In this document: positions 9,387-48,636 of the stretch, one piece after another
How the letters are laid out: each line of letters starts with the position of its first letter
How positions within the stretch are numbered: position 1 is the first letter of the stretch
Origin: a phage
Length of the DNA: 64,000 nucleotides
Direction: 5' to 3' (one strand)
Sequence record: PZ452578.1
Program-made: the position numbers and the translations under genes
Notes under the pieces: model-generated
The model's database searches: none
What the model was told of the DNA's origin: nothing
Seen by the model: only the letters and a program-made list of their open reading frames with translations

Positions 9387-9411
9387 GGGACCTTTCGGTC
9401 CCTTTTTATTT
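9387..9411. terminator. Bidirectional terminator between gene 24 (+) and rnlB (-)
   Basis: GGGACC-TTTC-GGTCCC hairpin flanked by an A-run upstream and a T-run downstream, so it has a U-tract on either strand. Confidence 0.8.
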
Positions 9412-22322: not shown

Positions 22323-23287
22323 TGTATTCTTTAGAGGAATTTAATAATCAAGCAATAAACGCAGATTTCCAACGTAATAATATGTTTAGCTGCGTTTTTG
22401 CAACAACTCCATCAACTAAAAGCTCTTCGTTGATAAGTTCAATTAGCAACTTTTCTTATAATAACTTGGGCCTAAATTCAGATTGGCTAGGATTAACTCA
22501 AGGTGATATTAATCAGGGAATTACCACGCTAATTACAGCTGGCACACAAAAACTGATAAGAAAATCAGGGGTTAGTAAATATCTTATTGGTGCCATGAGT
22601 CAACGTACAGTTCAAAGTTTATTAGGCTCATTTACAGTTGGTACATATTTAATTGACTTCTTTAACATGGCATATAACTCATCTGGATTGATGATATATT
22701 CTGTAAAAATGCCAGAGAATAGATTATCCTATGAAACTGACTGGAACTATAATTCTCCTAATATTCGTATAACTGGAAGAGAATTAGACCCTTTGGTTAT
22801 TTCATTTAGAATGGATTCAGAAGCATGTAACTATCGTGCAATGCAAGACTGGGTTAACGCTGTTCAAGACCCAGTAACTGGATTACGTGCTTTGCCACAA
22901 GATGTCGAGGCAGATATTCAGGTTAATCTTCATTCTCGTAATGGATTGCCTCATACTGCGGTGATGTTCACCGGATGCATTCCAGTGTCAGTGAGCGCTC
23001 CTGAGTTATCATATGATGGAGATAACCAAATAACTACATTTGATGTTACTTTTGCGTACAGAGTGATGCAGGCTGGAGCAGTTGATAGGCAAGCTGCGCT
23101 TGAATGGCTTGAATCTGCTGCTATAAATGGTATTCAAAGCGTTCTCGGAAATAGTGGAGGTGTTACTGGACTATCTAATTCGCTTTCACGACTTAGTAGA
23201 TTAGGAGGAACTGCAGGAAGCATTTCAAACATTAATACTATGACAGGAATTGTCAATTCGCAAAGTAAAATATTAGGAGCAATATAA
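22322..23287 (+). CDS. 54: Baseplate tail tube initiator gp54
   Basis: 321 aa, T4 gp54 length; ATGA coupling with 48. Confidence 0.9.
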   Translation: MYSLEEFNNQAINADFQRNNMFSCVFATTPSTKSSSLISSISNFSYNNLGLNSDWLGLTQGDINQGITTLITAGTQKLIRKSGVSKYLIGAMSQRTVQSLLGSFTVGTYLIDFFNMAYNSSGLMIYSVKMPENRLSYETDWNYNSPNIRITGRELDPLVISFRMDSEACNYRAMQDWVNAVQDPVTGLRALPQDVEADIQVNLHSRNGLPHTAVMFTGCIPVSVSAPELSYDGDNQITTFDVTFAYRVMQAGAVDRQAALEWLESAAINGIQSVLGNSGGVTGLSNSLSRLSRLGGTAGSISNINTMTGIVNSQSKILGAI

Positions 23288-23291
23288 CAAT

Positions 23292-23320
23292 GGGGACCTT
23301 TCGGTCCCCATATTTTTATT
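23292..23320. terminator. Bidirectional terminator between gene 54 (+) and the 96 aa minus-strand ORF
   Basis: GGGGACC-TTTC-GGTCCCC hairpin with T-rich flank. Confidence 0.8.
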
Positions 23321-23606
23321 TACGGAATGAAATGAAAGCAGAAACTGAAGCAACTAAACTGTCTTCAATATAAACTTCAATTTTTACCGGAGCTTCTGAC
23401 TCAAATTTACCTGTTACTACACCCTGAAAAATACTTTCAGTTTGTTCTGGCTTTGAAAAATTTTCAGAAGGAAAAATTCCGAACTTTTTATCTGTTCCAA
23501 AAATTTTAATAAATTCATCGTAAACTGCTTCATTAAAAGCATTATCAGCAGGAATAACGCCTTCAACTACAAGTTCTTGACCTAAAAAGCGCAAAGAAGA
23601 TTTCAT
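23316..23606 (-). CDS. Hypothetical early protein
   Basis: 96 aa ORF with a GAGGAA RBS, directly downstream of an early promoter. Confidence 0.75.
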   Translation of the reverse strand: MKSSLRFLGQELVVEGVIPADNAFNEAVYDEFIKIFGTDKKFGIFPSENFSKPEQTESIFQGVVTGKFESEAPVKIEVYIEDSLVASVSAFISFRK

Positions 23607-23635
23607 TTTGTGTTCCTCATGTTATGTCAGTAAGA

Positions 23636-23667
23636 CTACTATAACACAACATAAGGGACTTGTAAAC
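23636..23667 (-). promoter_or_regulatory. Sigma70-like early promoter (-35 TTTACA, 17 bp spacer, -10 TATAGT)
   Basis: Read on the minus strand as GTTTACA...TATAGT; promoter plus leader nearly identical to the copy at 39134-39191. Confidence 0.7.
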
Positions 23668-25724
23668 TACATTTTGAACTTTTTAGACATTCCGTTGATG
23701 TTAACCAAAGAAGCCAAGATTTGAGAAACTTCGTTTTCCTCTTCTTTTGATTCTTCTACAAGAAATTGATTAAATCCAGCCATTGGACGAACTTCACCAG
23801 TTTCCATTAAATGGTCGCCATCATATACCGATTCCTCTAATTGTTCAGAAGGAGGAACGATTGTACCTTCGATTAGATACTTGTTATAAGCAGTTTCTTT
23901 CATAAAGTACGTACTTACTTTATTAATCTTCAGTAAAATTCCACGCGGTAGAATAACTTCAGCTTCTGATGGAAATCCTGATAAATGACCTGGAACGATA
24001 ACTTTGATTCGCTCAGCTCCTTTAATTACCATACCCACGCTAGTTTCAGCATCTTCATTAGCATATGTAGAATGACTACCCATATGCATCAAATCTTCTG
24101 CGTCAACTGAACCTTCTCCTTCACCAGAAAATACTGCGCCGGAATCATCTAGAGCCATATAGTTTTTACCATGCTCACCGAAGATATTTGGTTTAAGAGA
24201 TGTGGATACGAAGTTCTTGAAATAGAACATTTTGTTTTCAATGTTATGACGCAAAGTTTTAAAGGTAACTTCTTGTCCGCGATAAAGCGTAGTTCCTGGA
24301 GGAAGAACTGAACCTTTAGCGAATGCAGAATCCAACGTCTCGATGTTCTTAATAGCTCGTTCCATATATTCTTCACGGGTAGAATCTGGTTTACCCAAAA
24401 GGAACGAGTTCATTTCAACATATGAATCTGCACAATAATCTTCAATTACATCAGATTCGGCCTGAGTCAGTCCTTTTGGAGTTACTTCAGTGCTTGCGTA
24501 TTCATATGCCTGGGCAGCAGATTCATTAATCAATTTATAAATGCCATTCATTACAAATTGAATAATAGCTGTCTTTTCATCTGGCGTAGCTTTAGAACCT
24601 TTAACCAAATCATTGATAATTTTCTTAATAACATCAAAGCTATTAGAAATATTAATATCAGCAAGATCGCTTAAAATTTTATCAGTTTTATAATCAAAGA
24701 ATTCTTTATTCTTTAAATATTCTTGAGAACCTTGATATGTTATATCGCTCTGCAACTTGATAGATGGATCACGTAAACGTGCATGGGCCAATGCAATATG
24801 ATTTCGGAAGTTTTCTAGTTCATAATCGCTAGATTTAAAACGAGAAGCACTCCTCATACCACCGATAGCTCCTTTGCTAAAGTTTGAACCAATCTGGATA
24901 ACCCCGGAGTTCATCGGACCTTCTGCTTTATATACCGGAACTTTAGATTCAAACTCTTGATATTTCTTAGCAGCGAAGCTATCACCCTGAAGTGAAGCAT
25001 CAACAGTAGAATATTGAGCTTGTGCTGCTAATCGACGACTAATTTTAGTTTTCTGAATAACAGCTTGGTCAGTACGTTTATCATTTTCTAAAGCAATAGA
25101 AGCAGCAACAGCAACAGCTTTAGGAACAGCATTACCTGTTTTAACATCTACATAAACATCACCAACCTTTGATTCAACTTTTGTGAATAACTCAGTTGAA
25201 ATAGGAGGTACACCTGGAATGTCTTCTAAATTGGCATTTTTACGGTAAACCATAATATATGCATACTTTTTATCATAGTCCCAGATTTCCTTTAAAAGAA
25301 CATATCGACCTGCTCCTTTAGTACGTACTAAACGGTCAGCAATAACTTGCATTTGACGAGCTGCGCCATTTGTTTTACTTTTTAGTACGCGGAATAAGCA
25401 TGCGTCAATTTTATACTGCTTCATTGTTTGAAGAGCAGTATCAAAAACAGCGTTAATGACGCCAATTGGATTTCCACCCAAGTTTCTAAGCTTAACCAGC
25501 GATAATTTCTCGTTGACACCTATCATTACGATATGCATCATTTTATCGCCTGGCTTAACGTTTTTATTCGTATCACCGCCAGAGGTGTATGTACAAAATC
25601 TAAATCCAGGAAGCACGCTTTCTTCGCCGGCTTGAATAGCAAAAATTTGTGGTATTTTATGCTTAGGATTTAAGTTAACAACCGGCGCCGAAGCGCCGTC
25701 AAATAATTCTGTAATAAGTTCCAT
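23667..25724 (-). CDS. Alt-family ADP-ribosyltransferase, downstream copy
   Basis: 685 aa; N-terminal 230 aa closely matches the adjacent 698 aa paralog; C-terminal half has R (LYRGQ), STS (FVSTSL) and catalytic E (SEAEVILPRG) motifs of R-S-E ARTs. Confidence 0.85.
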   Translation of the reverse strand: MELITELFDGASAPVVNLNPKHKIPQIFAIQAGEESVLPGFRFCTYTSGGDTNKNVKPGDKMMHIVMIGVNEKLSLVKLRNLGGNPIGVINAVFDTALQTMKQYKIDACLFRVLKSKTNGAARQMQVIADRLVRTKGAGRYVLLKEIWDYDKKYAYIMVYRKNANLEDIPGVPPISTELFTKVESKVGDVYVDVKTGNAVPKAVAVAASIALENDKRTDQAVIQKTKISRRLAAQAQYSTVDASLQGDSFAAKKYQEFESKVPVYKAEGPMNSGVIQIGSNFSKGAIGGMRSASRFKSSDYELENFRNHIALAHARLRDPSIKLQSDITYQGSQEYLKNKEFFDYKTDKILSDLADINISNSFDVIKKIINDLVKGSKATPDEKTAIIQFVMNGIYKLINESAAQAYEYASTEVTPKGLTQAESDVIEDYCADSYVEMNSFLLGKPDSTREEYMERAIKNIETLDSAFAKGSVLPPGTTLYRGQEVTFKTLRHNIENKMFYFKNFVSTSLKPNIFGEHGKNYMALDDSGAVFSGEGEGSVDAEDLMHMGSHSTYANEDAETSVGMVIKGAERIKVIVPGHLSGFPSEAEVILPRGILLKINKVSTYFMKETAYNKYLIEGTIVPPSEQLEESVYDGDHLMETGEVRPMAGFNQFLVEESKEEENEVSQILASLVNINGMSKKFKM

Positions 25725-25727
25725 GAT

Positions 25728-27824
25728 TTATCCTTGAACGAACTTGTAAGGTATGTTTGTAATATCTATGCAAGACGCAATAATTCCAAGAGATGATTCT
25801 ACTTTCTGTTTAACATTTGATGAAACAAATGATGCAAAGTCAACTCTGCCTTCTATTTCAATATCACCTGTCATTGCAACTACTTCGCCGGTTTCCATTA
25901 AACGGTCACCGTCATAAATTACCGATTCGGTGAGTTCTTCGGTGGTCATAACTTCAGCTTGAATGAGTTTTGTATTATTAGACGTGGTTCCGTCATTATT
26001 AGAAGCATCAGTTATTTTATTAACTTTGACCATCAATCCGCGCGGCAGAATAACTTCGGCTTCTGTTGCTATTCCGAGACTTCCTGGATATACAACATTA
26101 ACTTTATGAGCTCCATCAATTGCCCATCCTATTTGAACTTTAACGTATTCAGGATTTTCTTTATACGCTCTTATTTCGTTTGGATTAATAGTTATTCCTT
26201 CTTCATTTTTATCAACTGTTAATTCATTGCGAGCTTCTGGTTCTAAAAGACCAATACCAGCATGTGTAATTCCAAAACGTCCAAAAATGATAGGAGTTAA
26301 AGAAGTAGATACAAAATTTCTGAAATAGAACACTTTATTTTTAACTAGTGCTTCGTATATAGGAGCAGTCATACTTTGAGCACGATAAACTGTAATGCCT
26401 TCCGGTATGCGGTCACCATTTTCAAAAGCTGAATCTAAATTATTTATAGCAGATTCAATTTCTTTTTCACTCATTACATCATATCGTTCTGGATTGTAAC
26501 GACCTAAAAGAAGATTATTAATGTCTGTATATCCTGAACCACAATATTCTCTAATGCCGCGCTTTTGTGATGGAGTATATTTAGAACCATCACGGGCAAT
26601 AGTAATATCAATCATTGGACCTGCACCAATTCCAGAAAAGCTATAAATCATTCGTTTGAGGAATTTAGTTTTTGCTGCATTCCAGGCATTTTTAGTTATT
26701 TCTCCCCAGACTTCATCTGGTTGCCCTTTACGAGTTTTATTATGTTTATCAAGCCAATTATCTTTATATTCTTCAAAGAATTTATTAACAGCTGCTGCGT
26801 ATTTCTCTAAACATTTTATTGAAGTAGTTGGCTCATTTTTTATCGCATTGAGAATTACATCTTTAATTTTTTCAGAAACTTCATCAACCTCACTTTTTGA
26901 AAAGAATTTATAGTCATAGTGAAGTTCATTCGCAGTTCCTTCGGCAATAATTTTTGCTGCCTTAGTTTTAGAAGCTAATGAATTAATTCCAAGCTTCATT
27001 TCTTCTGCTTCGGGAATTAAAGGAGCGGTAGCAGGTTTATTGAAATTAGCTGCGGTAGATTCATACTTCTGGAATAATTCACTTTCAAATCTAGAAGATT
27101 CCAATGATTGACTTTGCGCAATTGCTCTACGGGAAATTTTAACTTTAACGATTACAGCTTGGTCAGAACGTTTATCATTTTCTTGCGCAATAGATGCTGC
27201 AATTGCCTCATTTTTAGTTACTTGGGCTCCAGTATCTTTATTGATATAAACATCACCGACCTTCGATTCAACTTTAGTAAAGAGCTCGGTACTAATTTCC
27301 GGAACTCCTGGAATGTCTTCTAGTGATACATTTTTACGATGTATAAGAATATATGCATACTTTTTATCATAATCCCAGAGTTCCTTAAGAAGGACGTATC
27401 TGCCACCTGAACGACTACGGATAAGTCTATCAGCAATAACTTGAATTTGTCGAGCTTGGCCAGCAGTTTTAGACTTAAGAATACGAAGCATACAAGCATC
27501 AATTTTATACTGACGCATCGTTTGCATTGCAACAGTAAAAACTGAATTGATATAATTAATTGGGCTTGGACCAAGACCTTTTAATTTAGCAATTGAACCT
27601 TTAGCAGTTAATGTAAAAGGAACAATATGCATCATTTTATCGCCCATCTTTAAATCGCGATTAGTATCACCTCCAGATGTATAGGTACATAAACGAAAGC
27701 CTGGTTGTTCAATTGCATCATCAACATGAACTGAAAAAATTTGCGGTATTTTCTTCTTTGGATTTAAGTTTGTAATCGGAAGAGTAGTATCTTCGTCAAA
27801 TAATTCTGTAATAAGTTCCATCAT
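25728..27824 (-). CDS. alt: Alt ADP-ribosyltransferase, upstream copy
   Basis: 698 aa; N-terminus MMELITELFDEDTTLPITNLNPKK; motifs VYRAQ, FVSTSL, TEAEVILPRG; 3 nt from the downstream paralog. Confidence 0.88.
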   Translation of the reverse strand: MMELITELFDEDTTLPITNLNPKKKIPQIFSVHVDDAIEQPGFRLCTYTSGGDTNRDLKMGDKMMHIVPFTLTAKGSIAKLKGLGPSPINYINSVFTVAMQTMRQYKIDACMLRILKSKTAGQARQIQVIADRLIRSRSGGRYVLLKELWDYDKKYAYILIHRKNVSLEDIPGVPEISTELFTKVESKVGDVYINKDTGAQVTKNEAIAASIAQENDKRSDQAVIVKVKISRRAIAQSQSLESSRFESELFQKYESTAANFNKPATAPLIPEAEEMKLGINSLASKTKAAKIIAEGTANELHYDYKFFSKSEVDEVSEKIKDVILNAIKNEPTTSIKCLEKYAAAVNKFFEEYKDNWLDKHNKTRKGQPDEVWGEITKNAWNAAKTKFLKRMIYSFSGIGAGPMIDITIARDGSKYTPSQKRGIREYCGSGYTDINNLLLGRYNPERYDVMSEKEIESAINNLDSAFENGDRIPEGITVYRAQSMTAPIYEALVKNKVFYFRNFVSTSLTPIIFGRFGITHAGIGLLEPEARNELTVDKNEEGITINPNEIRAYKENPEYVKVQIGWAIDGAHKVNVVYPGSLGIATEAEVILPRGLMVKVNKITDASNNDGTTSNNTKLIQAEVMTTEELTESVIYDGDRLMETGEVVAMTGDIEIEGRVDFASFVSSNVKQKVESSLGIIASCIDITNIPYKFVQG

Positions 27825-27845
27825 AGCCTCTCTAGTGTTTATTCT

Positions 27846-27853
27846 ATTTATAA
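27846..27853 (-). promoter_or_regulatory. T4-type late promoter TATAAATA upstream of alt
   Basis: Minus strand reads TTTTATAAATAGAATAAACACTAGAGAGGCT ATG; sits just after a terminator hairpin. Confidence 0.6.
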
Positions 27854-27858
27854 AATTA

Positions 27859-27878
27859 AAGGCCCGAAGGCCTTTAAT
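27859..27878 (-). terminator. Terminator hairpin after the 62 aa ORF / gene 30 operon
   Basis: AAAGGCC-CGAA-GGCCTTT palindromic hairpin directly 3' of the stop at 27874, followed by T-rich sequence. Confidence 0.7.
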
Positions 27879-28062
27879 AATCTAGTGGTAAGAGAGTACG
27901 GTATATTTCAAACTTTGGACCTTTTTCATAGGCATCAAATGTTTCTGTGAATTTATTATAAGCATATGCATCTACAAATTCGAGAATGACTTGTGATACA
28001 GAAGTAGAAACATCTCCACCTTCTTTTTGAGCAATGACAATTGTTTCTAAGTAAGCTTTCAT
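27874..28062 (-). CDS. Hypothetical protein
   Basis: 62 aa ORF whose start overlaps the gene 30 stop. Confidence 0.65.
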   Translation of the reverse strand: MKAYLETIVIAQKEGGDVSTSVSQVILEFVDAYAYNKFTETFDAYEKGPKFEIYRTLLPLDY

Positions 28063-31813: not shown

Positions 31814-32180
31814 ATTCGTTAAGAACTACATCAAAGATTGCTTCAAGATGCTCAGGTTTAGCTCTGTTACTCAGAATATGACGAATCCAAGTTTTAACCA
31901 AAAGCTTGCGATTATCACCATTCCAGCAAGGATGAGTCCCTAAATCACGTTGACGGAAATCATCATCCAGAGCGATTTTGAAGTTGGAACCTTCCATTGT
32001 GATTGAAACCGTGATACCGTTTTCAAATCGCATATAAACGTAGTTAGGAGTCATATACTGTTCAATTTCGCATACTGATCCATTTTGATGTTTCCAAAGG
32101 CAAATAGTATCAATAGAACCTGCAATACCATTAGAAACATATTTACGTTCAAAGTTGATGTAGTTCATTTTATTCTCCAA
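31803..32180 (-). CDS. Hypothetical protein
   Basis: 125 aa ORF in the 30.x cluster. Confidence 0.65.
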   Translation of the reverse strand: MENKMNYINFERKYVSNGIAGSIDTICLWKHQNGSVCEIEQYMTPNYVYMRFENGITVSITMEGSNFKIALDDDFRQRDLGTHPCWNGDNRKLLVKTWIRHILSNRAKPEHLEAIFDVVLNEFDI

Positions 32181-32235
32181 GATGTTTAATTGCGGTACAG
32201 GTATATAATATCATATCCTGTACCAAAGTAAACAA

Positions 32236-32568
32236 TTATTTTACTACTTTCCAATGCTGCATGTCAAGTTTACCAACTTTTTTCATCTTCTCAATTAAGC
32301 GTTCTGCACGTTGACGAGCTGTAACATAATGCCATTCGCCTAATTCATTTTGTTCAATTTTTCCAACGATTACTGTATTCAATTCATAAATCCAACCAGT
32401 AAAGAAATTATGAACTTGAATTGTAAAGGTGAAATCTGTTCCCATACCTTCTGTTGTTTCTACTTCAATAATATCACCTTCAACTGCCATTAAGAACCAC
32501 ATAGTTTCATTATATTTACCATTGAAGCATTTAGTTTTAACTGCAGCGTTCAGATTAATCGTTTTCAT
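32236..32568 (-). CDS. Hypothetical protein
   Basis: 110 aa ORF with a GGAGAA RBS, downstream of an early promoter. Confidence 0.7.
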   Translation of the reverse strand: MKTINLNAAVKTKCFNGKYNETMWFLMAVEGDIIEVETTEGMGTDFTFTIQVHNFFTGWIYELNTVIVGKIEQNELGEWHYVTARQRAERLIEKMKKVGKLDMQHWKVVK

Positions 32569-32595
32569 TTTATTCTCCTTTGTTTGTGTAAGATA

Positions 32596-32624
32596 ATACT
32601 ATCACAAAGGAACCATACTGTAAA
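32596..32624 (-). promoter_or_regulatory. Sigma70-like early promoter (-35 TTTACA, 17 bp, -10 TAGTAT)
   Basis: Minus strand GTTTACAGTATGGTTCCTTTGTGATAGTAT upstream of the 110 aa ORF. Confidence 0.65.
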
Positions 32625-32654
32625 CAACTTTATGCAATCTTTGGAAAATAAAAA

Positions 32655-35636: not shown

Positions 35637-36157
35637 GTTGATCCAAGCTCCTTACTTTCAACGTTTTTAACTAATTTGACAGAAACTAATTCAGCATCTT
35701 GAGTAATCATTACCGGGCCTTCTTCATACTCTTCAAGATATTCTAGAGCTTTCTTTTTAGCTTCTTCCTTCGTATCAGTTTGAGCATAGATATAGAACAT
35801 ACAACCAGTAATACCTACTACTTTCCACTTAATTTCTTTATCAGTTTTAATTTCAAATTTACTTACAGAATCATCTTTTTGAACTTCTTCGAAAAAAGAA
35901 TATTCTAACATATAAGCAATTGAAAATAGCGGGCTAACTTTATAGGATTCACCCATTACATCAACAGCTTTATACCAACAATCATCAATTTCGCGTTTAA
36001 TGCTAATAACATTTTTCGCAGGATCTATTTTTACTTTAAATGAATTTTCCCCAATAAACTGGGCAATTCGTTTATTAGCCCCGCAAGTTTCATTAAAAAT
36101 ATCTTTATATCCAGCTTTAAAGCGATAAACCTTATCTTCTTCAAACCATTCGCTCAT
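35627..36157 (-). CDS. Hypothetical protein
   Basis: 176 aa ORF. Confidence 0.7.
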   Translation of the reverse strand: MSEWFEEDKVYRFKAGYKDIFNETCGANKRIAQFIGENSFKVKIDPAKNVISIKREIDDCWYKAVDVMGESYKVSPLFSIAYMLEYSFFEEVQKDDSVSKFEIKTDKEIKWKVVGITGCMFYIYAQTDTKEEAKKKALEYLEEYEEGPVMITQDAELVSVKLVKNVESKELGSTCY

Positions 36158-36219
36158 TTCAATTTCCTCATTTGTTTTGGTAGAGCTATAATATCATAAC
36201 TCTACCGTAAAGTAAACTA

Positions 36220-36525
36220 TTAAATCGCTTTAAATTCTGACGTCTGTGATTTAAAGCGAATGTCGCCTTTGATAACTAGCTCAGCATCAAGACCAAATAC
36301 AACAATGATATGCGCGGAACCTGGATACAGCGTAATGGCAACAGAATCCACCTGGTCTGGAAGCAAAGTGTTCAATACATGAGTCACTTGAGCATGGATT
36401 CGAAGCTCAGCTGCGTTATCAAGTTTTTCAAACATATTATTAGCGATAATTTGGCTAAACACTACTTCTACGATTTTAGAATAAGTCGGAAACATATTTA
36501 CCTCACATAATTTTCTTCGAGCCAA
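36220..36525 (-). CDS. Hypothetical protein
   Basis: 101 aa ORF upstream of pseT. Confidence 0.65.
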   Translation of the reverse strand: MARRKLCEVNMFPTYSKIVEVVFSQIIANNMFEKLDNAAELRIHAQVTHVLNTLLPDQVDSVAITLYPGSAHIIVVFGLDAELVIKGDIRFKSQTSEFKAI

Positions 36526-38286: not shown

Positions 38287-38636
38287 TTAGAAAGGTCCTG
38301 GATGTCTTCTGCGAACTTGTTGAAGGAGTTGTTGATTTGTTTTTCAACCAATCCTGGCTTATGAGCCACCACATCCGCCTTCTTTGCATCTTTGCGCAGT
38401 TTTTCATTTTCACGCTCAATAGCAGCAATTGCCTCACGATTTTTATTATTCATCGCATCAATATAATTATACTGAATTCGCAAATTATCTAATGCTAAAG
38501 CGTTTTCATTGGCCGTTTTTGTAATTTCTACAACAGACGTTTCTAATCTTTCAATTTTATTTTTTAAAATTAAAGAAGTTCCGCCTAATGCAATTACAAT
38601 TAATAGCAAACCTGCTGTCGTATTACTTAATTGCAT
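38283..38636 (-). CDS. Putative inner-membrane spanin
   Basis: 117 aa; N-terminal hydrophobic helix TAGLLLIVIALGGTSLIL followed by charged coiled-coil-like sequence. Confidence 0.7.
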   Translation of the reverse strand: MQLSNTTAGLLLIVIALGGTSLILKNKIERLETSVVEITKTANENALALDNLRIQYNYIDAMNNKNREAIAAIERENEKLRKDAKKADVVAHKPGLVEKQINNSFNKFAEDIQDLSK

Positions 38637-39133
38637 AAAGTTTTAATAACCTCTATAATATCGTCTTGAGAAAGACCGTTAATTAAAATATGATGTTCAG
38701 CTGGAGATTTAGAAATTTTAAAGCATGCCTCAACATCTTCTGCCATATCCGATGCACTACGATTTGGATTACTAATACCAAGGCGGTGTTTTCCCGTCAA
38801 AGGATTAACGATGATATAGCATTTGCAGCTATTGATATGAACATTGGGTTGAGTCTGATTAATGAACACTTCACAATCATACTTAGCGAGTTGATTTTCT
38901 AAAAAGACTTTCATCTCTTCAACCGCATCAGGAAGCATATCACGGGCTTGCTCAAGACGACGATTTCGATATTCTTTAATGGTCGTTTTCCGCTTGACTT
39001 GCTTAGCTAAATCTTTCTTAAGATCGGTGATATATCCAACTCGACGATTTCCTTTGAATACAGAAATCCCATCTGTAGTATCACCGTATGCTTCAACGAC
39101 CATTTCAGTAGTAATAAGCTGCAAATCCATCAT
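38627..39133 (-). CDS. alc: Alc, inhibitor of host transcription
   Basis: 168 aa versus 167 in T4; position between rnlA and pseT; early promoter directly upstream. Confidence 0.75.
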   Translation of the reverse strand: MMDLQLITTEMVVEAYGDTTDGISVFKGNRRVGYITDLKKDLAKQVKRKTTIKEYRNRRLEQARDMLPDAVEEMKVFLENQLAKYDCEVFINQTQPNVHINSCKCYIIVNPLTGKHRLGISNPNRSASDMAEDVEACFKISKSPAEHHILINGLSQDDIIEVIKTLCN

Positions 39134-39191
39134 AAAGTCCTCATGTTATGTCAGTAAGACTACTATAACACAACACGAGGGACTTGTAAAC
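39134..39191 (-). promoter_or_regulatory. Sigma70-like early promoter with conserved leader (-35 TTTACA, -10 TATAGT)
   Basis: Minus strand GTTTACAAGTCCCTCGTGTTGTGTTATAGTAGTCTTACTGACATAACATGAGG; second copy of the cassette at 23607-23667. Confidence 0.7.
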
Positions 39192-39194
39192 AAC

Positions 39195-40782
<1,588 letters not shown>

Positions 40783-47619: not shown

Positions 47620-47847
47620 TTATTTTTGGATTAAGCCCATATAAAATTTAGCATCTTCAGGATACATGCCATCACAATACTCATTGGTCATAAAACTAAT
47701 AAGGTCTTCAAGAGGACCTTGGACCTCAATTTGAATACTAAAGAATTGGGTATCTTTAATGTAAGCCATACTCAAAGAAGGATAACGATTGCGGATAACT
47801 TCGTAAGTGTATTCAAAATCAACAATATCAATATTAACCTTAGCCAT
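47620..47847 (-). CDS. Small early protein, paralog A
   Basis: 75 aa from the [13 protein letters not shown] start (RBS GAGGA); paralog of the ORF at 48334-48564. Confidence 0.7.
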
Positions 47848-47876
47848 TTTATTTTCCTCATGTAGTTGATAGGGTA

Positions 47877-47906
47877 ATAGTATCACACTACTACCCTTAC
47901 TGTAAA
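47877..47906 (-). promoter_or_regulatory. Sigma70-like early promoter (-35 TTTACA, 18 bp, -10 TACTAT)
   Basis: Minus strand GTTTACAGTAAGGGTAGTAGTGTGATACTAT upstream of paralog A. Confidence 0.6.
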
Positions 47907-48287
47907 CTACTTTTTGAAAGTTTTTCGCAAAAGTTCAATGATTTCATCTACATTGTTTTCATCTACAATGCAGTGAATTTTTGTTACGCCAGAAACCTTG
48001 TCTTTGACTTCAACTTCTTCAGAAGTCGGTTCTTTATACTCACGAAAACAATGAAATTCGTCTTCGCAAATTTCTAAAAGTCTATCTTTGAGGTAAAAAT
48101 GCTTTCCATTTGCGCATTCAATGTGTTTTACTGCTTTATATCCATTAGCGACGGAAACTTCTTTAACTTCAAACCATCCGCCATTATCTCGAATCGCTTT
48201 AACTATTGATGAATTAGAACGTGGGCTATAATTAATAAATGTATCAATAAGTCTTGGAACAAGCTCATACTTTTTACCGGTATACAT
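47907..48287 (-). CDS. Hypothetical protein
   Basis: 126 aa ORF between the two paralogs. Confidence 0.65.
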
Positions 48288-48333: not shown

Positions 48334-48564
48334 TTATTGTTCAATCAGTCCCATGTAAAATTCTGCGTCTTCAGAATCCATGCCATCACAATATTCATTA
48401 GCCATAAAGCGGGTAAGGTCTTCAAGAGGACCTTCAATGACAATAGAAAAATTGCAATAATTGGGATCATCATGAATACTTGTGATACTAAGTTCAGGAT
48501 AACGATTACGAATAATTTCTTCGATATATTCAAAATCAACGATGTCAATATCAACTTTAGCCAT
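48334..48564 (-). CDS. Small early protein, paralog B
   Basis: 76 aa from the [13 protein letters not shown] start (RBS AAAGAGGAA); shared motifs with paralog A. Confidence 0.7.
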
Positions 48565-48607
48565 ATTATTTTCCTCTTTAATCATCAGCAGTATTGCCGA
48601 TAGTTGT

Positions 48608-48636
48608 ATAGTACCATGGAAGAACAGGGATGTAAA
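48608..48636 (-). promoter_or_regulatory. Sigma70-like early promoter (-35 TTTACA, 17 bp, -10 TACTAT)
   Basis: Minus strand GTTTACATCCCTGTTCTTCCATGGTACTAT, just downstream of the gene 32 terminator. Confidence 0.65.

Follow-up and report, generated by a model that had tools for sequence, protein, structure and literature searches.

Promoter-early stem-loop (PeSL) cassettes of T4-like phages combine an upstream stop codon, a sigma-70-type early promoter, a stem-loop, a Shine–Dalgarno (SD) sequence and a start codon, and occur in near-identical copies at separate loci (Arbiol et al., 2010, PMC2839356; Comeau et al., 2014, PMC4122927). Five placements of the stem-loop, within or beside the promoter, have been published: between the −35 and −10, over either box, upstream, or directly ahead of the start. 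The published role of these cassettes is that of terminator or attenuator and of recombination linker in hyperplastic regions, and the word “translation” is absent from the 2010 paper (PMC2839356). A second described arrangement is that of the T4 genes e, soc, 49 and I-TevI, in which long transcripts initiated upstream hold the SD in a helix, while a promoter within the DNA of the 5′ arm gives a shorter RNA whose SD is free (Uzan and Miller, 2010, PMC3014915). Neither alc nor alt.-3 is mentioned in this review of T4 translational control. The early promoters of T4 are themselves described as “UP/−35/TGn/−10” promoters (Hinton, 2010, PMC2988021).

The DNA analysed here is a 64,000-nt stretch of a phage genome (the window), which on sequence similarity belongs to the genus Tequatrovirus: its alt region is ~98% identical to RB32, RB27 and D5505, and its alc region is 99% identical to Sf22. 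A sequence-only reading of the window had drawn attention to a promoter-leader block of about 54 nt, running with two mismatches from the −35 through the ribosome-binding site, upstream of both a 96-aa ORF and alc. The block is indeed repeated, with 52 of 54 bases common to the two copies from the −35 hexamer through the SD. Its outer coordinates, first placed at 23607 and 39134, took in a few bases that the copies do not share, since the gap between block and start codon is 7 nt at alt.-3 and 4 nt at alc. The features of the two loci are as follows.

23614–23667, minus strand: copy 1 of the 54-nt block, upstream of alt.-3 (pattern search; repeat scan, family D10)
23661–23666, minus strand: −35 hexamer TTTACA of copy 1 (consensus scan)
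23638–23646, minus strand: extended −10 TGtTATAGT of copy 1 (consensus scan, folding)
23631, minus strand: predicted transcription start of copy 1, an A 7 nt past the −10 (promoter geometry)
23615–23618, minus strand: SD GAGG of copy 1, predicted to pair with spacer CCUU (folding)
23615–23656, minus strand: predicted hairpin of copy 1, with 5′ arm 23656–23637 (spacer and −10) and 3′ arm 23632–23615 (leader and SD)
23316–23606, minus strand: alt.-3, 96 aa, the gene downstream of copy 1
39138–39191, minus strand: copy 2 of the 54-nt block, upstream of alc (pattern search, repeat scan); probable donor (from comparison)
39185–39190, minus strand: −35 hexamer TTTACA of copy 2 (consensus scan)
39162–39170, minus strand: extended −10 TGtTATAGT of copy 2 (consensus scan, folding)
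39155, minus strand: predicted transcription start of copy 2, an A (promoter geometry)
39139–39142, minus strand: SD GAGG of copy 2, predicted to pair with spacer CC-UC (folding)
39135–39185, minus strand: predicted hairpin of copy 2, 22 bp with one bulged C, about −24 to −26 kcal/mol
38627–39133, minus strand: alc, inhibitor of host transcription, the gene downstream of copy 2; the start annotated in T4 is the second ATG (39130)

On the minus strand, copy 1 reads GTTTACAAGTCCCT[TA]TGTTGTGTTATAGTAGTCTTACTGACATAACATGAGGA from 23667 to 23614 (full block GTTTACAAGTCCCTTATGTTGTGTTATAGTAGTCTTACTGACATAACATGAGGA) and is followed by ACACAAA and the ATG of the 96-aa ORF. Copy 2 (39191 to 39138) has CG at the bracketed pair and is followed by CTTT and ATGATG. 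The two mismatches are thus adjacent, and the longest perfect run is 38 nt. The 5′ end of the block is the −35 (GTTTAC from 23667), and its 3′ end is the A after the SD GAGG. Both copies carry TTTACA-17 nt-TATAGT with an extended −10 TGn, each with 10 of 12 matches in the consensus scan. At alt.-3 the gap from GAGG to ATG is 8 nt, while at alc the first ATG lies 5 nt past GAGG and the second, T4-annotated ATG lies 8 nt past it. The upstream genes end at the block itself: the alt.-2 stop TAG (23669–23667) overlaps the G of the copy 1 −35, and the rnlA stop TAA (39197–39195) ends 3 nt before the copy 2 −35. The A-rich, UP-like sequence upstream is not the same at alt.-3 and alc and falls outside the block. 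Separated by 15,524 bp, the copies form direct repeats around pseT, cd, 31, rIII, the 30.x genes, 30 (ligase), alt and alt.-2. The alt.-3 gene is non-essential (PMC11618068).

A pattern search of the window with up to 3 mismatches returned these two sites only, against none in 100 shuffles, and in a whole-window repeat scan the pair (family D10, 95%) was the sole near-identical non-coding repeat. For other early promoters, whether from the window or from other genera, agreement with the block is limited to 34–43 of 54 positions, even with gaps allowed. Similarity limited to the −35 and −10 hexamers, the outcome that the sequence-only reading had named as fatal to its proposal, was not what the alignment gave, as identity extends through the leader to the SD. 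Chance or consensus similarity was dropped as an explanation on the shuffles and on the background promoters.

The block is best read, at slightly better than even odds (a probability of about 0.55), as a composite cassette in which an early promoter carries in its spacer an anti-SD that insulates alc and alt.-3 from read-through, and which was transferred as a patch from alc to alt.-3 in an ancestor. When either copy is folded, the leader and its SD find their complement in the −35/−10 spacer and the −10 itself. For copy 1, an 18-bp hairpin of −21.2 kcal/mol is predicted. In copy 2 the lowest pairs of the longer stem involve CUU (39137–39135), bases peculiar to the alc flank and not part of the repeat. 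All 4 SD bases are predicted to pair with the spacer in both copies. When the 17 nt of the spacer alone were shuffled, 0 of 1000 shuffles folded as well for either copy, and folding in a 91-nt context gave z scores of −2.6 and −3.8. The copies had earlier been described as sitting next to hairpins or gene ends; the gene ends are there, in the alt.-2 and rnlA stops, but the hairpin lies inside the block rather than beside it. That the block itself forms an SD-sequestering hairpin had been missed in the sequence-only reading.

The two differences between the window copies keep pairing (C-G to U-G and G-U to A-U). T4 carries both copies; its alc copy is identical to that of the window, and its alt.-3 copy has CG at the variable pair and one G-to-A change elsewhere, which lies opposite a U and also keeps pairing (U-G to U-A). 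Across the genus, substitutions at paired positions comprise 3 that preserve and 3 that disrupt pairing, a small sample. The Tequatrovirus copies contain three G-U pairs, and their sense strand folds at −24 kcal/mol against −15 for the antisense strand. In the outgroup genera the helices are nearly all Watson–Crick and the antisense strand folds about equally well, so that the comparison of strands discriminates in Tequatrovirus only, and in these folding predictions only the Tequatrovirus copies point specifically to the sense RNA.

In the usual promoter geometry, transcription starts 7 nt past the −10, and an A at this spacing is conserved in most of the related promoters. The starts so predicted, 23631 and 39155, would sit in the 3′ half of a short helix that tops the hairpin. 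From these starts, the leader is predicted to be unstructured (−2.7 and −4.1 kcal/mol, not significant). The predicted probability that the SD is unpaired is at most 0.01 in read-through RNA, and in RNA from the block's own promoter it is 0.13 for alt.-3 and 0.62 for alc; this measure discriminates poorly, because outgroup alt.-3 leaders also have low predicted SD accessibility, arising from other weak pairings.

The same design recurs at alc outside Tequatrovirus. Members of Kanagawa-, Karam-, Gelderland-, Marfa-, Jiaoda- and Dhakavirus have a GTTTACA...TAnnAT promoter directly after the rnlA stop, with spacer/SD pairing built from differing sequences, such as TCTCCGTTT/AAACGGAGA, TCCTCATCAG/CTGATGAGGA, ATCCCATTTTGTT/AACAAAATGGG, TCTCCTCAT/ATGAGGAGA and CCTCGTTTGTT/AACAAACGAGG. 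In these six genera, 3–4 of the 4 SD bases are paired at alc, and 0–4 of 1000 spacer shuffles fold as well. Column-wise covariation on a MAFFT alignment was abandoned, as the register of the helix relative to the −35 shifts by 2–3 nt between genera, and was replaced by spacer-shuffle tests on each sequence and a partner table anchored on the aligned SD. In that table, both-sided compensatory changes occur at at least six positions of the 3′ arm. With Tequatrovirus, SD pairing upstream of alc is thus predicted in seven genera with different, compensating sequences. The design is not indispensable at alc, because Mosigvirus, with only a small stem within the spacer, and Gaprivervirus DK-13, with an extra ORF (a partial alc paralogue) and a GC hairpin at the rnlA–alc junction, do without it. 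Lazarusvirus and Biquartavirus have other geometries at alc, and Lazarusvirus has an extra ORF at the rnlA–alc junction. At alt.-3, too, Gapriver-, Mosig-, Marfa- and Kanagawavirus have an early-type promoter that abuts the stop of an alt paralogue, but in these four genera 0 of 4 SD bases at alt.-3 are paired to the spacer.

A stem-loop over a −10 could instead act on transcription or RNA stability, by attenuating or terminating read-through or by shielding the 3′ end of the upstream mRNA. An RB49 PeSL stem-loop was reported to cut downstream lacZ expression to the same degree as a strong terminator (PMC2839356). Action through the SD cannot hold for all stems of this kind, since at several T4 early promoters a strong hairpin spans the −10 but leaves the SD out. 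At the two blocks, a terminator scan was empty and neither stem is followed by a U-tract (ACACAAAAUG at alt.-3, CUUUAUGAUG at alc), and an intrinsic terminator was rejected on both counts; the sole intrinsic-terminator-like site near copy 1 is at 23290–23311, downstream of alt.-3. SD pairing is moreover a constant feature at alc across the seven genera, which a pure terminator or stabiliser would not require. A transcriptional or stabilising role is therefore unlikely. A known Rfam family was ruled out as well: in Rfam 15, copy 1 had only chance-level matches far below the gathering score and copy 2 had none. No late-promoter motif (TATAAATA) is found within either block.

The sequence-only reading likened the block to the mobile promoter-plus-stem-loop cassettes proposed to drive gene shuffling, and saw in the two copies a recombination substrate between loci 15 kb apart. 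The layout is PeSL-like and a past transfer is probable, but no sign of current shuffling was found. In blastn searches with an 81-nt query, essentially all of ~500 Tequatrovirus records have the sequence in two places, upstream of alt.-3 and of alc, while Mosigvirus has one weaker, partial place. One Tequatrovirus record, fPS-65, labels the alt.-3 site “predicted early promoter”. Pattern and protein-anchored scans of IMG/VR added only a handful of close Tequatrovirus contigs, informative for within-genus variation alone. Gene content beside the copies is conserved: at alc the flanks are syntenic in 497 of 500 records, and at alt.-3 in 402 of 501.

Variation within the block gives a similar picture. 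Among 8 Tequatrovirus genomes, one has two perfect copies, differences within a genome range from 0 to 6, and no variant is common to both copies of any genome. The nucleotide diversity of the block, 0.023 at alc and 0.063 at alt.-3, is within the range of the flanking coding sequence. Ongoing concerted evolution was dropped for these reasons, substitutions being independent between copies and block diversity being like that of the flanks, and the sequences suggest that an old duplication has since drifted apart at the background rate, without homogenisation of the copies. T4 has lost 1.7 kb from within alt.-2, with the deletion endpoint at a 9-nt microhomology 19 nt upstream of the −35; as this point is outside the block, a cassette-mediated origin of the deletion was dropped.

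An active PeSL linker, in the sense of a portable patch of homology by which indels, exchange or mini-circles are now promoted among its neighbours, is accordingly an improbable reading of the block. The idea has several observations on its side. The block has the descriptive features of PeSLs (PMC2839356, PMC4122927), and for the duplication to have arisen, an ectopic exchange with its limits at the −35 and SD motifs must have taken place at least once. In Mosigvirus, a related stretch from the −10 to the ATG stands upstream of an unrelated ORF, and Gaprivervirus and Lazarusvirus each have an extra ORF at the rnlA–alc junction. As quoted from Singer et al. (1982) in PMC2839356, T4 recombination needs only ~50 bp of homology. 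Against it stand the fixed loci of exactly two copies in ~500 genomes with conserved flanks, the position of the T4 deletion end, the lack of shared substitutions and the flank-like diversity, and also the genes that the direct repeats enclose. Genes 30 and 31, both between the copies, are essential in T4. A crossover between the copies would give either loss of these genes or a duplication of ~15.5 kb, which would exceed the terminal redundancy, and such crossovers should therefore be dead ends. With independent substitutions, syntenic flanks and essential genes in between, the two copies give no sign of ongoing shuffling, and their value as a recombination substrate is not borne out.

The presence of the composite cassette at two loci is best explained by past recombinational transfer with junctions in conserved −35 and SD motifs. 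The comparison of sequences makes it most likely that the alt.-3 copy was pasted from alc in a Tequatrovirus ancestor, replacing the resident alt.-3 promoter. The patch recombination would have had its junctions at GTTTACAAG and ACATGAGGA, motifs common to both promoters. The alt.-3 flanks of the outgroups and of T4 have GTTTACAAG in common at one end and ACATGAGGAA.ACAAAATGAAATC at the other, and the replaced patch therefore appears to lie between two motifs that many early promoters have. Within the block, AAGUCC pairs with the alc-specific flank GGACUU and has no partner at alt.-3. The likely donor is alc, because SD pairing is ancestral there and absent at alt.-3 outside Tequatrovirus, and because the partner of AAGUCC is found at alc only. 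The direction of transfer is not decided by sequence identity alone, as the block matches outgroup alc promoters at 37–43 of 54 positions and outgroup alt.-3 promoters at 34–41 of 54.

How the composite cassette might insulate its genes depends on the transcripts that enter it from upstream, and the relevant features are as follows.

23667–25724, minus strand: alt.-2, full-length alt paralogue of 685 aa, the putative source of read-through into copy 1
39195–40319, minus strand: rnlA (gp63), the putative source of read-through into copy 2
27845–27852, minus strand: late-promoter motif TATAAATA, directly after a terminator hairpin and upstream of alt

Between alt.-2 and alt.-3, a scan covering 22800–24300 gave no terminator-like site, and alt directly adjoins alt.-2, so late transcripts would be expected to run through into copy 1. 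No terminator-like site was detected by the terminator scan between rnlA and alc either. Upstream of rnlA there is a MotA-box-like TGCTT with TACTAT; mapped middle promoters are further upstream, at nrdB (PMC2988021, Table 1).

In the proposed mechanism, the cassette would act as a strong sigma-70 early promoter (TTTACA-17 nt-TGnTATAGT) with leader and SD. Read-through RNA, from rnlA into alc or from late alt and alt.-2 into alt.-3, would hold both arms and could fold into the 18–22 bp hairpin, burying the SD. RNA from the embedded promoter would start within the top helix without the 5′ arm, and its SD should therefore be more accessible; the predicted opening is clear for alc and weak for alt.-3. 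The likely outcome would be translational insulation: immediate-early RNA from its own promoter would be the only RNA from which each of alc and alt.-3 is translated, and middle or late read-through would not contribute. That the spacer doubles as an anti-SD explains why the whole 54 nt travelled and has been kept as a unit, since the same bases serve as promoter spacer and anti-SD.

The hairpin might conversely be a device for translational coupling, opened by ribosomes that terminate at the upstream stop, so that translation of alc and alt.-3 would keep pace with that of rnlA and alt.-2. The stop codon of the upstream gene precedes the anti-SD by 6–13 nt in all genera examined. Judged by the ribosome footprint, a ribosome terminating there could reach, or nearly reach, the anti-SD and could therefore open the hairpin, coupling rather than silencing the downstream gene. 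The T4-type alc anti-SD, however, starts 13 nt past the stop, at the edge of that reach. In T4 time-course omics, alc and alt.-3 are classed as early RNA and early protein, whereas rnlA is early RNA but late protein, and alt.-1 and alt.-2 are middle RNA (PMC9697503, supplement). The separate classes of Alc and RnlA proteins, and of the two genes and their neighbours generally, argue indirectly against tight coupling, which seems an even less probable role than a transcriptional one, and they fit independent early expression of alc and alt.-3. Convergence on a strong-early-promoter consensus, in place of duplication, can be dismissed: T-even early promoters have in common GTTTAC(A/T), TGn, a −10 of the form TAnnAT, a start region resembling CTAC and a leader resembling ACATGAGGAAA, but neither the 52/54 identity, which includes the non-consensus spacer and far exceeds the 34–43/54 of background promoters, nor the identical consensus sequences of both loci over 8 Tequatrovirus genomes would be expected from it.

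Hairpins that depend on the promoter spacer are found elsewhere in the window and in T4. In the window, 6 of 9 early-promoter-like sites have one, and SD-spacer pairing is seen in three of these six: alc, alt.-3 and a site with its −10 at 32601. At a window site at 48613, the SD pairs with the spacer no better than with shuffled spacers. The 50–76 kb region of T4 has 15 early-promoter-like sites, of which three (upstream of regB, denV and nrdC.8) clearly sequester the SD; a further two or three do so partly, and in four or five the stem spans the −10 but not the SD. With spacer hairpins at other early promoters, the alc/alt.-3 unit is therefore one instance of a common T-even design, that published as PeSL. 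That T-even early promoters commonly carry a spacer anti-SD, allowing translation from their own transcript only, conserved at alc, present upstream of regB, denV and nrdC.8 and transplanted to alt.-3, is a tentative generalisation that falls a little short of even odds. If it holds, the polarity of the classic e/soc/I-TevI arrangement is reversed and PeSL stem-loops gain a translational function. It would suggest a simple rule for how T4 keeps immediate-early proteins such as Alc off middle and late read-through transcripts and, if confirmed, provide a compact natural “insulated expression cassette”. The repeat itself matters little, as it is already present in T4 and fits the published description of PeSLs; the combination of an early promoter with an anti-SD in its spacer is possibly an under-described variant.

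The alc/alt.-3 unit is a PeSL-class cassette and not a new or actively mobile element. Like the published cassettes, it has an upstream stop, a sigma-70-type early promoter with a spacing of ~17 nt, a stem-loop over the −10 and thus within the promoter, an SD and a start codon, in that layout; its promoter fits the published PST/T4 consensus TTTACW-N17-TAYWAT, and its near-identical copies are at separate loci. An association with variable ORFs or indels was not seen at the Tequatrovirus loci, an extra ORF between rnlA and alc being found only in other genera. The unit further differs from published PeSLs, with their terminator, attenuator and linker roles, in that its stem pairs with the SD and has no U-tract, and in that both loci are syntenically stable throughout the genus. 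With Rho-independent terminators it shares a stable stem-loop at a gene boundary, but the stem has no U-tract and is undetected by the terminator scan. It resembles the T4 early promoters in its GTTTAC −35, 17-nt spacer, TGn and near-consensus −10, with the difference that the A-rich UP-like region is not part of the repeated block. A mechanistic parallel is with e, soc, 49 and I-TevI, where the SD is likewise held in a helix on long transcripts initiated upstream and freed on a shorter RNA from a promoter within the 5′-arm DNA, as is predicted here. In those genes the embedded promoter is late (gp55) and late genes are kept silent early, whereas at alc and alt.-3 it is an early sigma-70 promoter and an early gene would be kept silent on middle and late read-through RNA. 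As the embedded promoter is early and not late, the polarity of the predicted switch is reversed.

Folding placed spacer-dependent hairpins (those that depend on the bases between -35 and -10) at further early promoters of the window besides those of alc and alt.-3, the sites being defined by the early-promoter pattern GTTTAC[AT], TGn and -10.

Further early promoters of the window with spacer-dependent hairpins
32560-32630, minus strand: early promoter, -10 at 32601; Shine-Dalgarno sequence (SD; AAGGAG) paired with the spacer
36150-36225, minus strand: early promoter, -10 at 36193; strong stem across the -10, SD outside the stem
32170-32240, minus strand: early promoter, -10 at 32210; strong stem across the -10, SD outside the stem
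47850-47915, minus strand: early promoter, -10 at 47882; strong stem across the -10, SD outside the stem

Hairpins of both kinds are found in T4 (AF158101, 50001-76000). At the denV, regB and nrdC.8 promoters, all four of the four SD bases are paired with the spacer, and none of 300 shuffles of the spacer bases folds equally well (0/300), while the ipI, ipII, e.7 and mobD.2 promoters carry stems across the -10 only.

T4 early promoters with the SD paired to the spacer (AF158101 record positions)
65413: -35 G of the denV early promoter
62797: -35 G of the regB early promoter
53943: -35 G of the nrdC.8 early promoter

The denB-ndd interval of Mosigvirus phi25-307 (comparison stretch L003, 2485-2545) contains a segment running from the -10 to the ATG, GTATAGTAGTCCTACTGAAACATGAGGAACACAAAATG, that is similar to the T4 cassette. 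Over its final 20 nt it matches the alt.-3 leader exactly, and the gene downstream is an unrelated small ORF. The alc promoter of Mosigvirus is itself similar to the alt.-3-type promoters of other genera, and it has relatives at other loci in other genera.

Within the window, tandem paralogous gene starts that are ~80% identical lie at 47620-47859 and 48334-48576 on the minus strand, spaced 714-717 nt apart (repeat scan, D6/D7). Both have an early promoter of their own in front, with the -10 at 47882 and 48613, respectively, and the layout looks like a duplicated promoter-plus-ORF unit.

An 88-aa ORF is inserted between rnlA and alc in Gaprivervirus DK-13 (MT611523.1; comparison stretch L025, 124-390). 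This ORF is partially paralogous to the N-terminus of Alc, with 48% identity across 64 aa (E = 6e-17), has a GGGG...CCCC stem and a promoter-like sequence of its own upstream, and looks like a recombination scar at the rnlA-alc junction. The denA-rnlA gap of the window (40335-40378, minus strand) contains a MotA-box-like TGCTT followed by TGgTACTAT, and may be a middle promoter. The spacer of this candidate holds a CCACA/TGTGG mini-stem, and the site does not figure among the mapped middle promoters listed in the literature.

Two tandem full-length alt paralogues occupy 23667-25724 and 25728-27824 on the minus strand, with ~72% nucleotide identity (repeat scan, D1, D3 and D5). At 27845-27885 on the minus strand, a terminator-like hairpin, AAAGGCCTTCGGGCCTTT, is directly followed by a late-promoter motif, TATAAATA, ~20 nt before the start codon of alt. 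The interval between gene 54 and alt.-3 contains a bidirectional terminator, ATGGGGACCTTTCGGTCCCCAT (23290-23311), whose core, GGGACCTTTCGGTCCC, is found again at 9387-9402 (repeat scan, D17). In T4, only the alt.-1 and alt.-2 remnants of the tandem alt paralogues are left after a deletion of ~1.7 kb. In window coordinates the deletion runs from 25377 to 23686, with 9 nt of microhomology at the junction. T4 is able to do without alt.-3 (23316-23606, minus strand, in the window), and C-terminal extensions of Alt.-3 allow T4 to escape the CmdTAC defence system (PMC11618068).
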